From positions 32,001 through 96,000 of IMG/VR virus record IMGVR_UViG_3300027763_000027: a DNA stretch of 64,000 bases; one strand, written 5' to 3'. The notes below the pieces were generated by a model. That model was given only the letters and a program-made list of their open reading frames with translations, had not been told where the DNA came from and searched no databases. Shown piece by piece: positions 6,442 through 10,825 of this stretch (within the stretch, counting starts at the first letter, position 1; the number at the start of each line of letters is the position of its first letter). The translations under genes and the position numbers were made by a program. Origin of the DNA: a virus.

Positions 6442-6470
6442 AGGATATGATATTTTTATATATTTGTCAA
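6442..6470 (-). promoter_or_regulatory. sigma70-type promoter of the PHP-exo-dnaE operon
   Basis: TTGACA-17 nt-TATCCT; ATG 10 nt downstream. Confidence 0.6.
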
Positions 6471-9400
6471 GTTTTTTTAAAATCTCTTATTTTAGGAAGT
6501 AAAAGCGACCAATTCGTTGTTTTGTAGCTTGGGACATTAAAATTTATTGTGGGATTTAATGAATGTATTAAATTATCGTCTTTTTCCTTACTATTTTGGA
6601 TTTTAAGAGCTTTTTGTTTTTTTATAATTTTATTAATATTAATTCCTTCTGGGATTTTTAATTTTAAATTAAAATAGTTTTGTAAATCGTCTATAGACCT
6701 TTCGTAATCGTATTCAAAAAGATAATGATTTATTAAATTTACGGATTTATCTTCTATAAAATATTTTTGATTATATTTCCTATATAATTCTCCTGTGGCA
6801 GGATTCTCTGCGCCTGCTTTGTCTGCTGGATTTTTTAATTTTGCACTGTAATTATGCCAAACTGTAGCTTCTGAAGTTAATTTTAAATTCCATCCTTTTA
6901 AAAAACTCAAAAAAGTCATAACGTCTTCTTCTCCTTTGTAGACTATATAATCAGAATAAACTACTTCTTTTAACCATTTTTTACTCGTAAAAAAGAAACC
7001 AGCAGAAATCCAATATGCATCCACCATTTCGTAGTCTTTTAATGAATCTATATTCTTCACTTGCAAGCGATTATCTTTGGGGTTATTATTATCATAGAAA
7101 CCAACTATTTTAAGTGGTGCGTTAAATGGAAAACGTTCGCGCTCTGGGACATTTAAATATTCGTCTTCTTTATCTGGCTTATCAAAATGGTTTGGATAAG
7201 TACTTAATACTACTTTTTCTAAACCGAAGCTTTTGTATTGGTTAATGAGTATATTGTCCCAATTTTTTTTAACTCTGCTATGAGAATCTAGTTGTAAAAA
7301 ATAGTCTTCGTCATTATACAGTTCTTCTTTTATTTTGTTCCTAGCCCAATGAACACCTTTCGTTAATTCTATAGGGGTAAATTTAATCTTTAAATTCTTA
7401 AAATTATAAGACAGTATTTTTTTATAAAAATCTTCGCTGTCCTGTAAATGCAGACCAATACAGATTCTGTCTGAATCGAAAGCTTCTTCATTTAAAGATC
7501 TTATTGTATTTATGACATCTGTATCACAAAAACTGGCTATAGATACGAATATTTTTTCTTTCTTAAAATCCCAAGTATCTTTGTGGTATCTTGCCCAATT
7601 ACCAATATAATTCTTGTCTTCTAAAAAAGTGCATTGTTTTGATTCTTGAAATTTTTCTGTATTTATATAATAATTTTTATCTTCTATATCGTCCATGTAC
7701 CCTCTAATTCTATATATTAAAGACGATAAAGTAGATAATTTATTTCCTACGAATTTTATTGATCTAGAGCAGATCAATTGCTCTATCATAGGTATCCAAT
7801 TTGGGTGAATATCTTTATATTTCTCTTCTAATAAATTATCTAAATCTTTATAAAAATAGACCTGATATTTTTCTTTAAATATCTTAAAAAAATCTTGGTC
7901 TTTATGATCTGTTGCTATATAGAGTTTTGAGCCAAAAGGGATGATATTTTTAATATTCTCTATTATATCTTCTGCAGGTATCAACAATTCTTTGTATTGG
8001 TCTGCATAGTCTCCGCGCCGTACATGTATACTATAATAATTTTTGTCTTTCAAAAGATTAATAAACTGCCATGCAATATCAAATATTTGTGTTTTATATC
8101 TAACGTATTTCCCTGTTAATTTTTTAATCTCCGCGTCTAAAGAGGTATATATAGTTTGCTCTGGCACTCCAAGTAAATTCTTATCTAAAAATATACATTC
8201 TTCATTAGTAAAGTAATCTTCGGCGTTTATATAATTTCTAAATTTTAAAAAATCTTTGGGCGGAATTACCTTTTCAAAGTTTAATACATTTTTAATGCAA
8301 TCAAAATTTAGAATTTTGCTTATTTTTTTTGCAGATTCTAAATCTTCATTTATGTTTTTGATATTACAAAATTCTTTAAATGATAAATGTTTTATCCCGA
8401 AGTCTTGGTCTAATTCAAAATAGTTTTCTATTGCGCTTTCTTCTCGATAAACTGGACTTGGGATTCTGTAGGCTGGTGGAAGTACTAATTTCCTATTTGT
8501 TAAATATGCTATAGAAAAAGCCAATTCTAGAGACATTCTTAAATTATTAAAACCCGCCATCCAAGGACTTAGTATTAGATATCCTGATTCTCCGTTATAA
8601 TTTTTTAAAGCATTAGAAAAATCCCATTTTAAGTAATATAAATAATCCGTATTGCTTTGCGTTAAATTTGTTAGCAATAAATTATCTATAGGAAATTTAC
8701 ATAAAGATAAATCAATATGTTGTTTTTGTTTATTGGTGTATTCTTGTTTAAAAAAAAGATTTTTTTCACTATCATTTTTATCTTTTATAATGTTTGGATA
8801 ATGAATAATATTTCCTATTATTTTTCTATTTTCATTATACCAATCCGTACATGTTCCTAAGTCTTCTATTGTTTTTATATTTATATTTTCTGATTTTAAA
8901 GAAAAGTCTAAACCAAACATGTCAGATATCCATTCTTTTGTTCTTTCTCTAACCAATTCTGAATAAGATGTATTTTTTTTAGATATTTTTTTAAGGGTTA
9001 AAAAATTTATAACAAAAGGATACATTATAGATTCTGTTTTCGTGTATTCAAAAAATTCTGGAAAATCCGCGAATAAATCAAAAAATCTAGAAAAAAATTG
9101 ATCAGCATTTGGGAAAATCTGCCCAATAATTTGATCATCTTCTAATTGATCATATTCTATACGTTTTGCAAAACACATATCTGGATCAACAAATAGTAAT
9201 TTATCAGAATCTTTAAATTTAAAATAATTAGTTTCGCATAACCATTCTATCGATTTATATTTATTTGGTATGCCTCCGTGCCAATCATGCTTTGCTACAG
9301 TCCACTCTTCTGCCCAGTCGGGTAATTTAACCATTTGTACGTTTTGATCTATTAAAAAGTCTTCATATTTTATATCTAAAGCTTTATTTTCTGGATGGTG

Positions 9401-9529
9401 CCTAATATCATCGGACAATAATATTATAAATTTGCCAGATTGATTAACTTTTTTAAATGACCAATATAATAATTTTATTTGCCATAATTGATAGCTGCAA
9501 ACACTTGTGCTTACGATAAGGTAATCCAT
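6467..9529 (-). CDS. Three-domain protein O-glycosyltransferase: HPAT/SGT-like + O-fucosyltransferase-like + GT60 (Hyp-GlcNAc transferase)-like
   Basis: N-terminal YQLWQ..YWSF..QSG, NK..W, VDPDM. Middle GFNN..LVLPP, IHVRRGD, LYIATD, IEQLICSRS..FVG..STLS. C-terminal IFVSIASFCD, GVHWAR, LQLDSHSR..NWD, LSTYP, SAGFFF, GEED. Confidence 0.75.
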   Translation of the reverse strand: MDYLIVSTSVCSYQLWQIKLLYWSFKKVNQSGKFIILLSDDIRHHPENKALDIKYEDFLIDQNVQMVKLPDWAEEWTVAKHDWHGGIPNKYKSIEWLCETNYFKFKDSDKLLFVDPDMCFAKRIEYDQLEDDQIIGQIFPNADQFFSRFFDLFADFPEFFEYTKTESIMYPFVINFLTLKKISKKNTSYSELVRERTKEWISDMFGLDFSLKSENINIKTIEDLGTCTDWYNENRKIIGNIIHYPNIIKDKNDSEKNLFFKQEYTNKQKQHIDLSLCKFPIDNLLLTNLTQSNTDYLYYLKWDFSNALKNYNGESGYLILSPWMAGFNNLRMSLELAFSIAYLTNRKLVLPPAYRIPSPVYREESAIENYFELDQDFGIKHLSFKEFCNIKNINEDLESAKKISKILNFDCIKNVLNFEKVIPPKDFLKFRNYINAEDYFTNEECIFLDKNLLGVPEQTIYTSLDAEIKKLTGKYVRYKTQIFDIAWQFINLLKDKNYYSIHVRRGDYADQYKELLIPAEDIIENIKNIIPFGSKLYIATDHKDQDFFKIFKEKYQVYFYKDLDNLLEEKYKDIHPNWIPMIEQLICSRSIKFVGNKLSTLSSLIYRIRGYMDDIEDKNYYINTEKFQESKQCTFLEDKNYIGNWARYHKDTWDFKKEKIFVSIASFCDTDVINTIRSLNEEAFDSDRICIGLHLQDSEDFYKKILSYNFKNLKIKFTPIELTKGVHWARNKIKEELYNDEDYFLQLDSHSRVKKNWDNILINQYKSFGLEKVVLSTYPNHFDKPDKEDEYLNVPERERFPFNAPLKIVGFYDNNNPKDNRLQVKNIDSLKDYEMVDAYWISAGFFFTSKKWLKEVVYSDYIVYKGEEDVMTFLSFLKGWNLKLTSEATVWHNYSAKLKNPADKAGAENPATGELYRKYNQKYFIEDKSVNLINHYLFEYDYERSIDDLQNYFNLKLKIPEGININKIIKKQKALKIQNSKEKDDNLIHSLNPTINFNVPSYKTTNWSLLLPKIRDFKKT

Positions 9530-9565
9530 ACTGGATTTACACTCTAATAACAGGTATGAATAGTG

Positions 9566-10825
9566 TTATTTTTGAACAAACGTCCAATCTTTCAATTTGT
9601 AATGCACAAATAAATTTCTAAAATATTCACCTTCGTATGGAGTTATTCTTCCATGTTCACACGTAGCGGATTCATACATGATCATTTGGCCTATTTCGGC
9701 ATATATTTTATGCCAATTTCCATTATGATCTTTTATGTCTAATGGCCAATTTTTATCACCTTTTCTATCTACAATTATAATAGTAGAAATATGATGAGTT
9801 GGCAATCTATCTAAATGTGATTTTAAAAATGAACCATTTTTATAACTTCTTATTCCATAGCATGCAGATTTTATAAGTGGAGTTTTAGCCCATTCTTCAT
9901 GAATGGGTTTTAATTGGTCTAAAATTATTTCTCTTATAGTATTTAAATTATCAATTGACATCAATTCTGTTGCATGTTGATTGTCTTTATTTTGTAAAAC
10001 TCCATTGTTTCCTGGTTCTGCGTCTCTTTCTGGTTTTACAACATTTTTTAATATTTCATACGCGTCTTTAATCAAAGCGAAAGTTTGTTCTGGGACTTGT
10101 TTTACCTCAAAACCAATTGGATGGAACTTAGGAACTTCATCATGAGAAGAAAAAGTTTTTTTAGATGCTTCTGTGTTTGTGTTAATATTCATATTTGAAA
10201 TTTTTTTAATAAAGTCTTCTGGAACTTGATTTACTTCATATTCTTTAAACCATCTTGTTAAGATGTACTTTTTACCTTTCGTAACTGGTCTTCCAGCGTG
10301 AAGAGCTGAACGATTTCCTGTACCATCTGAATTAAGATTCTTCCAAATTATTGCCATTCCTGTCTTAGGTTTAAATTTAATATTTATTTTTTGGAACTCT
10401 GTTTCACCCCCCTCAAGATCTTCATTTAAATAGACCATGAAGGTGTAAAGCCTGTTTCCTTGTTGCCCCACATATTCTTTCAAATTCTTTCCTTCAAACC
10501 AATCAAAATGATCCTTAAATTGTTGACCTACCTCATACCTTTGCCCCTGTAAGACTTCGGTTCTTGTTTTGGGTATATTCAAGATATCAGACATTTTGTC
10601 GTTAACTTCTGTTATTAACGCGTGTCTTTTTTCATCCAATATGCTGGAATAAGAAGTTCTATTTTCTACTACTTGAGAAAGTTCTCCTGGAGTTTCTGTT
10701 GCAGTGACCGACCTTACTGCGTCTTGATCTATTAAATCAATTAATATTTTGCATTTATCTGGAGATAAAAAATTATCTATTGTGAATAGTTCTATACCAC
10801 TTTTTTGAACCTTAGTCATGATCAT
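9566..10825 (-). CDS. Prolyl 4-hydroxylase-like 2OG-Fe(II) dioxygenase with a second 2OG-Fe(II) domain
   Basis: Domain 1: DNFLS..C, RTS, QRYEVGQQFKDHFD, R..TFMVYLN, GGETEF, LHAG.PV..G.K...TRW. Domain 2: GIRSY..HLD..WPL..HGR. Confidence 0.85.
   Translation of the reverse strand: MIMTKVQKSGIELFTIDNFLSPDKCKILIDLIDQDAVRSVTATETPGELSQVVENRTSYSSILDEKRHALITEVNDKMSDILNIPKTRTEVLQGQRYEVGQQFKDHFDWFEGKNLKEYVGQQGNRLYTFMVYLNEDLEGGETEFQKINIKFKPKTGMAIIWKNLNSDGTGNRSALHAGRPVTKGKKYILTRWFKEYEVNQVPEDFIKKISNMNINTNTEASKKTFSSHDEVPKFHPIGFEVKQVPEQTFALIKDAYEILKNVVKPERDAEPGNNGVLQNKDNQHATELMSIDNLNTIREIILDQLKPIHEEWAKTPLIKSACYGIRSYKNGSFLKSHLDRLPTHHISTIIIVDRKGDKNWPLDIKDHNGNWHKIYAEIGQMIMYESATCEHGRITPYEGEYFRNLFVHYKLKDWTFVQK

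Follow-up and report, generated by a model that had tools for sequence, protein, structure and literature searches.

A mobile prolyl hydroxylase and glycosyltransferase cassette in a phage genome, probably acting on the phage's own Pro/Thr-repeat proteins

The characterised members of three glycosyltransferase (GT) families, HPAT, POFUT and GT60, act on hydroxyproline (Hyp), Ser or Thr of proteins. HPAT and SGT1 transfer L-arabinofuranose to Hyp or Gal to Ser, GT60, which includes Gnt1 of Dictyostelium and the pp-alphaGlcNAcT of Trypanosoma cruzi, adds alpha-GlcNAc to peptidyl Hyp or Thr, and the acceptor of POFUT is Ser or Thr of a folded Cys-rich module (EGF/TSR). A review assigns Hyp-linked glycans to plants, to green algae and to the Skp1 protein of protists, and they count as a hallmark of Skp1 and of the cell wall in plants and algae (PMC8724618); no description of a phage or bacterial system combining a prolyl 4-hydroxylase (P4H) with HPAT/GT60 enzymes was found in the literature. 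Here we describe a two-gene cassette in a stretch of 64,000 nucleotides (the window), which comprises bases 32001-96000 of the IMG/VR record IMGVR_UViG_3300027763_000027 (171,916 bp, rated 100% complete; labelled G000 below). Its adjoining, co-oriented open reading frames (ORFs) encode P0002, a two-domain 2-oxoglutarate (2OG)/Fe(II) oxygenase, and P0001, a triple GT fusion (Table 1). Judged from sequence, this mobile and cytoplasmic cassette would, on balance, probably hydroxylate and O-glycosylate the phage's own Pro/Thr (PT)-repeat fibre or decoration proteins, such as P0008.

The locus resembles the extensin and arabinogalactan-protein system of plants and green algae (P4H with HPAT of GT95 and SGT1 of GT96) in pairing a collagen-type P4H with an HPAT-family GT-A domain, in having extended Ala-Pro/Ser-Pro/Thr-Pro repeats as candidate substrates, in carrying a GDP-mannose 3,5-epimerase as a source of L-sugar and in the fold of the N-terminal domain of P0001, which fits chlorophyte and diatom HPAT clusters (TM-score ~0.8). 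Whereas the plant enzymes are Golgi type-II membrane proteins, those of the phage are soluble and predicted to be cytoplasmic; moreover, the HPAT-like domain is fused to two more GTs, is encoded by phages and Bacteroidota, and stands in a protein that falls below the HPAT threshold of Pfam. Like the protist Skp1 pathway (PhyA, the GT60 enzyme Gnt1 and the Gal/Fuc diglycosyltransferase PgtA), whose enzymes are soluble and often fused and whose glycan contains fucose, a point on which the phage system can be likened to it, the cassette combines a P4H with soluble, fused GTs that include a GT60 (PMC8724618). The phage P4H is, however, of the collagen/viral type whereas PhyA is of the PHD type, its substrate would be hundreds of repeat prolines rather than the single Pro of Skp1, and its partner GT domains are HPAT-like and POFUT-like in place of the GT2 and GT74 of that pathway. 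To our knowledge prokaryotes have no Skp1. Mimivirus L230 and animal PLOD/LH3 likewise couple a 2OG hydroxylase to a GT for which the hydroxyl just made in a repeat protein is the acceptor, but they act on Lys in collagen G-X-Y and hold hydroxylase and GT in one chain. Mycobacteriophages also glycosylate their own structural proteins with phage GTs in the host cytoplasm; unlike the cassette, that system has no hydroxylase, uses other GT families and modifies short C-terminal acceptor sites rather than long PT repeats. The chlorovirus PBCV-1 encodes a P4H of the same family as that of the phage (A085R; 5c5t, 2e-14), although this virus infects a eukaryote and A085R has no adjacent Hyp-directed GT. 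By the account given in PMC7019647 of Eriksson et al. 1999, the PBCV-1 enzyme acted on viral Pro-Ala-Pro-Lys-type repeat peptides.

Residues 14-194 of P0002 align end to end with solved P4Hs in a phmmer search of the PDB, among them those of Bacillus anthracis (3itq/5iax, 3e-28), human (C-P4H alpha-2, 7zsc, 3e-20) and Chlamydomonas (2jig, 7e-16), in addition to that of PBCV-1. The match to the Pfam family 2OG-FeII_Oxy_3 (PF13640) is 1.3e-19 (71 bits, cut-off 27). The Fe triad H106-x-D108...H176 and the 2OG-binding K186, 10 residues past the distal His, align with those of the B. anthracis enzyme and are kept in homologues. The best matches are collagen-type P4Hs, neither PHD2 nor PhyA being matched at E≤1 in the same search, and by family this domain is a true collagen/viral-type prolyl 4-hydroxylase. 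Residues 232-416 match phrog_2954 (5e-20), an uncharacterised family common in phages, with a triad H337-x-D339...H391 that is conserved in six homologues; the nearest clusters in the ESM Atlas are unnamed viral and bacterial ones. NCBIfam has no family for P0002, and neither a transmembrane segment nor a signal peptide is predicted. The linker and start of the second domain (residues 279-339, window 9809-9991) also gave a phmmer match to a ferritin chain (7urh, 8e-5).

An exhaustive search with the N-terminal domain of P0001 gave 52 representative relatives, and 19 of the 27 that were aligned match the HPAT family PF23452 (best 4.6e-12; relative P0020, 41.6 bits against a cut-off of 23.9). 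An alignment-based AlphaFold model of the domain has a mean predicted local distance difference test (pLDDT) score of 89.4 and was used for all fold comparisons, the single-sequence prediction scoring 33. The model is close to HPAT-bearing ESM-Atlas clusters from chlorophytes, diatoms and bacteria (TM-score 0.77-0.81), and against the PDB it has a GT-A fold with retaining GT6/GT8 enzymes as the nearest structures (TM-score ~0.5). The DxD motif D115-P-D117 is invariant among 27 sequences. Through the intermediates and the modelled fold, its place with HPAT is supported. The second domain matches O-FucT (PF10250) at 3e-20 (73.5 bits, cut-off 31.5), and a profile of its family finds POFUT2 (1.8e-10) and, weakly, POFUT1 (0.08) in the PDB and nothing else. 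In POFUT2 the Glu of P-E-G-F-N is the catalytic base and HxRRxD provides the catalytic, GDP-binding Arg; H502-V-R504-R505-G-D507 of P0001 aligns with the POFUT2 HLRRKD and is invariant in the family. The third domain matches GT60 (PF11397) over residues 712-896 at 5.7e-32 (112 bits, cut-off 21; 97 bits in the genome search) and phrog_24687 at 2e-22, with a nucleotide-sugar motif, Q-x-D748-S-H750, that is invariant among 10 sequences; no relative of the GT60 profile was found among solved structures. No transmembrane segment or signal peptide is predicted in P0001. An earlier note, made from the sequence alone, had described two adjacent co-oriented genes here, for a P4H-type dioxygenase with a second 2OG domain and a protein with three GT segments of HPAT, O-FucT and GT60 type. 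The ORFs lie exactly where it had placed them, the solved P4Hs and phrog_2954 with its conserved triad bear out the two oxygenase domains, and all three GT segments matched the named families, that of HPAT only transitively and by fold. None of the three matched polysaccharide- or DNA-modifying GT families, which the note had held would speak against it.

The fusion of HPAT-like, O-FucT and GT60 domains recurs in many metagenomic proteins, some of which add a PLOD-type GT domain, a type that glycosylates hydroxylysine in collagen. Recurrence of the cassette was followed in 51 loci from a scan of IMG/VR and in four marine Bacteroidota/Saprospiraceae metagenome-assembled genomes (MAGs) from a scan of species genomes; pairing was scored with domain hidden Markov models built here, and clusters were formed at 70% identity. 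In 45 of the 54 informative loci (15 of 20 clusters) the gene immediately upstream of the GT fusion encodes the two-domain oxygenase, and it stops a few bases ahead of the fusion or, often, overlaps it. The carriers are varied and include phages with different replication and structural genes, such as a T4-like phage (L007) and an unrelated polB phage with GTP cyclohydrolase and Cpn60, in which the cassette adjoins the DNA polymerase gene (L004), as well as the Bacteroidota MAGs. The cassette is not confined to phages, marine Bacteroidota carrying it too. Bona fide bacterial contigs have, in addition to the cassette, sulfotransferases, an epimerase and one more, small oxygenase; in one Bacteroidota locus (L009) the flanks of the cassette hold two sulfotransferase genes and the gene of a PTSS-repeat protein that carries a type IX secretion system (T9SS; Por_Secre_tail) sorting domain (14841-16273, 6405-7193). 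These flanking genes suggest export of a sulfated glycoprotein.

Several variants of the cassette were also seen. In L004 a separate FkbM-type methyltransferase gene (6248-7477) follows an HPAT-like/O-FucT fusion in place of the GT60 domain, and in two phage loci a carbamoyltransferase gene stands directly after the GT fusion (L006:4918-6516, L007:6898-8454). The cyanophage S-SCSM1 (L003) has a stand-alone O-FucT gene with a 2OG oxygenase gene on either side, of which one is of the second-domain type, and with nucleotide-sugar genes (epimerase) a few kb away and a carbamoyltransferase gene near. From the adjoining carbamoyltransferase genes, the glycan may be carbamoylated. Two IMG/VR GVMAG contigs, L056 and L060, binned as giant-virus MAGs, hold relatives of the cassette, L056 with the full oxygenase and triple GT; they may be true giant viruses or mis-binned phage contigs.

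The Ala-Pro/Thr/Ser-rich, Cys-flanked protein that the earlier note took for the substrate, P0008, proved real, with its SAPxxT units lying between Cys-rich ends that matched no family. Neither a signal peptide nor a transmembrane segment is predicted in it, and this, with the same result for P0002 and P0001, fits modification in the cytoplasm before assembly. P0008 is one of four large PT-repeat ORFs in G000. Another, in the structural module, encodes a 461-amino-acid protein and stands two genes beyond that of the putative capsid, and the remaining two are parts of a giant protein (>1600 amino acids) that runs off both ends of the record (genome 167042-171916 and 1-4413; L188:7042-11916, L189:1-4413). 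The record ends within these Pro/Thr repeats, so that the assembly probably broke there. The giant protein has two globular modules that are 55% identical, a segment like the P-domain of proprotein convertases and a Cys-rich C-terminal end. A short N-terminal sequence, W-(D/N)-x-D-F-D-(N/D)-F, is common to P0008 (window 53065-53100) and the giant protein (L188:7060-7140; pairwise E 2e-4), and from its sequence may be a common virion-anchoring peptide.

Six-frame scans found Pro/Thr/Ser/Ala/Val-repeat ORFs within 10 kb of the cassette in 26 of 60 loci (12 of 21 clusters) and in none of 80 control loci (1.3 Mb), all ThyX-anchored relatives of the source phage and so one locus of one lineage. The repeat ORFs are nearly all on the same strand as the cassette and often hundreds of residues long. 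They include the PTSS-repeat protein with the T9SS sorting tail, whose gene lies immediately upstream of the one for the bacterial P4H, a TPS-repeat ORF of >1200 amino acids beside a pair of GT60 genes (L005) and a collagen-like GPT repeat (L052). Co-occurrence with such genes had been proposed as a check on the substrate, and these counts, together with the presence and absence described below, agree with it.

Within the phage's own lineage the cassette was compared across these 80 loci, whose ThyX is 80-97% identical to that of G000. It is absent from 77; one short contig (L076) has a nearly complete copy that lacks only the HPAT-like domain (8654-9568), and two, including L069, retain the P4H domain alone. 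Alignment joins window position 10861 to 6440 through ~55 bp in L068, L079 and L101, and the cassette is a clean 4.4-kb insertion in this lineage. Seven relative records that have no full cassette (35-87% complete) were fetched whole and scanned in six frames, and hold neither the full cassette nor the PT-repeat genes of G000. The genome segment 83.2-93.7 kb, with P0008 and the downstream GT10/GT7-like cluster, is missing from all relatives that span the region. The relatives keep the N-terminal anchor of the 461-amino-acid protein minus its repeats, and their homology ends exactly at the start of the giant repeat gene. A genome search of the relatives with P0008, run without a positive control, gave no match.

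The sugar-nucleotide genes that the earlier note suggested might supply the cassette are likewise real, and one of them, for a GDP-mannose 3,5-epimerase of plant type, had gone unnamed in it. The Arabidopsis enzyme makes GDP-L-galactose, and the presence of this epimerase beside GDP-mannose 4,6-dehydratase (Gmd) implies synthesis of GDP-L-galactose or GDP-L-gulose. From their sequences, these genes fit O-FucT-like and GT10 enzymes that use a GDP-L-sugar. The short-chain dehydrogenase/reductase (SDR) at the end of the set is full length at 353 amino acids, and none of its first 113 codons is ATG, GTG or TTG; a non-canonical start is probable, or else annotation would shorten it to 240 amino acids. 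The phage has an unusually large complement of GTs (2-1678, 45428-46510, 22037-25486 and 57074-60645). The last group belongs to the island missing from relatives, and the genes at 22037..25486, for whose GT2/GT1-like members NCBIfam has no family, may extend glycans.

Table 1. Positions of the cassette, its domains and other features in the window
Feature	Position	Strand	Basis or remarks
Limits of the 4.4-kb accessory insertion	6440..10861	.	between PD-(D/E)XK nuclease gene and PHP gene
P0002, two-domain 2OG/Fe(II) oxygenase, 419 aa, first cassette gene	9566..10825	-	ORF, Pfam and PHROG matches
Prolyl 4-hydroxylase domain, aa 14-194	10244..10786	-	PDB phmmer matches, motif positions
Second 2OG-type domain, aa 232-416	9578..10132	-	phrog_2954, conserved triad
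P0001, triple GT fusion, 1020 aa, second cassette gene	6467..9529	-	soluble
HPAT-like GT-A domain, aa 1-305, invariant D115-P-D117	8615..9529	-	relatives' PF23452 matches, AF2 fold
O-FucT (PF10250) GT-B domain, aa 317-612, H502-V-R-R-G-D507	7694..8581	-	Pfam
GT60/'GlcNAc' (PF11397) domain, aa 658-899, invariant Q-L-D748-S-H750	6833..7558	-	Pfam, phrog_24687
P0008, candidate substrate, 772 aa	53050..55368	+	Cys-rich N-end, 52 SAPxxT hexapeptides (38 SAPVVT), GAPGT repeats, Cys-rich C-end
CDP-tyvelose-2-epimerase-like SDR	17061-18122	-	3e-42
GDP-mannose 3,5-epimerase, plant-type	18140-19099	-	6e-94 to Arabidopsis GME 2c59
NDP-sugar dehydrogenase	19132-20253	-	
GDP-mannose 4,6-dehydratase (Gmd)	20254-21408	-	3e-99
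GT-like genes: HtrL/YibB, two GT2-like, one GT1/GT4-like	22037..25486	-	Pfam, mostly under curated cut-off
GT10-type fucosyltransferase, downstream of P0008	57074-58048	+	Pfam
GT10-type fucosyltransferase, downstream of P0008	58982-59914	+	Pfam
GT7/GT2-like enzyme, downstream of P0008	59911-60645	+	Pfam
Glycosyltransferase genes	2-1678 and 45428-46510	-	phrog_2170
PHP domain gene, part of split DNA polymerase III alpha	5685-6431	-	three-gene set spans 2244-6431
DnaQ-like exonuclease gene, part of split DNA polymerase III alpha	5042-5722	-	
DNA polymerase III alpha core gene	2244-4826	-	

The record has a guanine-cytosine content of ~30% and encodes a phage terminase. Alongside a split DnaE, in which PHP, exonuclease and Pol III alpha core are each a gene of their own, its replication module has genes for a primase, DnaB, a RecA-like protein and ThyX. 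The phage has no close relative in culture; a megablast search of cultured phages with the cassette gave no match, and tblastn with the cassette found single-domain relatives only. ARAGORN also called a transfer-messenger RNA gene (window 38338-38725, minus strand) with the tag peptide AKTAKYKGHISARVSLVEETASVA.

The domain identities, the intact catalytic motifs, the conserved gene pairing and the co-occurrence with repeat genes are observed; from them we infer a scheme that proposes a substrate, acceptor residues, sugars and a place on the virion. The P4H domain would hydroxylate prolines in extended (S/T/A)-A-P-x repeats of P0008, the 461-amino-acid protein and the giant protein; by repeat type, candidate peptide substrates are (SAPVVT)n, (TAPT)n and (TAPTVAPTAPPT)2. 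The three GT domains of P0001 would then start and extend O-glycans on the repeats, with Hyp and/or Ser/Thr as acceptors; initiation would likely fall to the HPAT-like and GT60 domains, and the O-FucT-like domain would add a GDP-linked L-sugar (L-Fuc or L-Gal) provided by the phage Gmd and GDP-mannose 3,5-epimerase. Other phage GTs, for example the GT10 beside P0008, would probably elongate the chain. The outcome would be glycoprotein stalks on the virion that resemble mucins or the hydroxyproline-rich glycoproteins (HRGPs) of plants. The overall interpretation of the earlier note is thus supported in silico.

A number of observations weigh against this scheme. Residues 1-305 of P0001 gave no direct match in Pfam at E≤0.01, P0001 itself falling below the HPAT threshold, and the catalytic Glu of POFUT2 is replaced, by Gly in the family consensus and by Ala in P0001 (A325-G-F-N-N). 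In G000 the cassette sits in the replication module, at least 40 kb from the repeat genes; G000 is the only member of the lineage in which the full cassette and the repeat genes occur together, and the control loci in the comparison of repeats are not a random sample. A note in PMC7019647 has it that Hyp was not detected in PBCV-1 virions despite the active viral P4H. Finally, in the records of a group of phages (G009-G012, ≤89% complete) TPS-repeat genes adjoin the GT fusion and there is no PF13640 gene, so that acceptors other than Hyp may be used, Ser/Thr being a live alternative.

The same phages, with the same fusion and no P4H, lead to the explanation that survives best among the rivals, namely that Ser/Thr are the only repeat residues to which the GT fusion adds sugar and that the oxygenase hydroxylates Pro or another residue to a structural end, for instance to give a stiffer polyproline-II stalk, rather than to create an acceptor. 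Ser and Thr abound in the repeats, the T. cruzi member of GT60 is Thr-directed and the HPAT-related SGT1 acts on Ser (PMC8724618). Against this, HPAT and Gnt1 are Hyp-directed, and the very tight pairing of oxygenase and GT genes suggests coupled action. It would seem rather unlikely that Ser/Thr are the sole acceptors.

The many other GTs and sugar-nucleotide genes of the phage would also suit an auxiliary metabolic module by which glycans of the host envelope (lipopolysaccharide, capsule, S-layer glycan) are remodelled during infection, for example against superinfection, as would the O-FucT gene of S-SCSM1 flanked by 2OG genes near carbamoyltransferase and epimerase genes; PF10250 moreover includes transferases that do not act on protein. 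Such a module is nonetheless improbable, leaving as it does the prolyl hydroxylase in the operon and the repeated adjacency of PT-repeat genes without explanation; the enzymes are soluble and lack a membrane anchor, and among solved structures the O-FucT profile finds protein O-fucosyltransferases alone. Modification of host proteins, such as translation factors, in the way that PHD-type hydroxylases of bacteria act on EF-Tu, as a device for host takeover is more doubtful still. The cassette does lie among early/replication genes, and bacterial prolyl hydroxylases with host-protein targets exist by the account in PMC7864055, but the phage P4H is of collagen/viral rather than PHD type, the bacterial copies adjoin PT-repeat proteins that those bacteria secrete, and the link to repeat genes at the level of the lineage would be left unexplained. 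Hypermodification of phage DNA, by base hydroxylation and then glycosylation to evade restriction, is scarcely credible: the cassette lies between a nuclease gene and DNA polymerase genes, and next to a polymerase gene in the unrelated L004 as well, but a domain of Tet/JBP type is lacking, the alignment of the oxygenase with protein P4Hs runs from end to end, the GT domains are outside known DNA-glycosylating families, and nearly all close relatives with the same replication genes have no cassette.

Beyond the modification of the phage's own repeat proteins, we put forward more tentatively, and with doubt prevailing, that phages and marine Bacteroidota own a genuine Hyp-linked O-glycosylation pathway of HPAT/Gnt1 homologues, which would equip virions and cell surfaces with HRGP- or mucin-like fibres bearing L-Fuc or L-Gal. 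If true, this pathway would give Hyp-glycosylation its first example outside the eukaryotes, extend Hyp-glycan chemistry to prokaryotes and their viruses through a cassette conserved in phages and Bacteroidota, and point to prokaryotes or viruses as a reservoir, or as the origin, of the enzymes with which eukaryotes make Hyp-glycans. The compact, soluble, fused enzymes may offer a means of producing Hyp-glycopeptides in bacteria. A function would also be assigned to some of the many unexplained 2OG oxygenases of phages, and the cassette suggests mucin-like glycoprotein coats on abundant aquatic phages, with a bearing on adsorption, grazing and the stickiness of particles.

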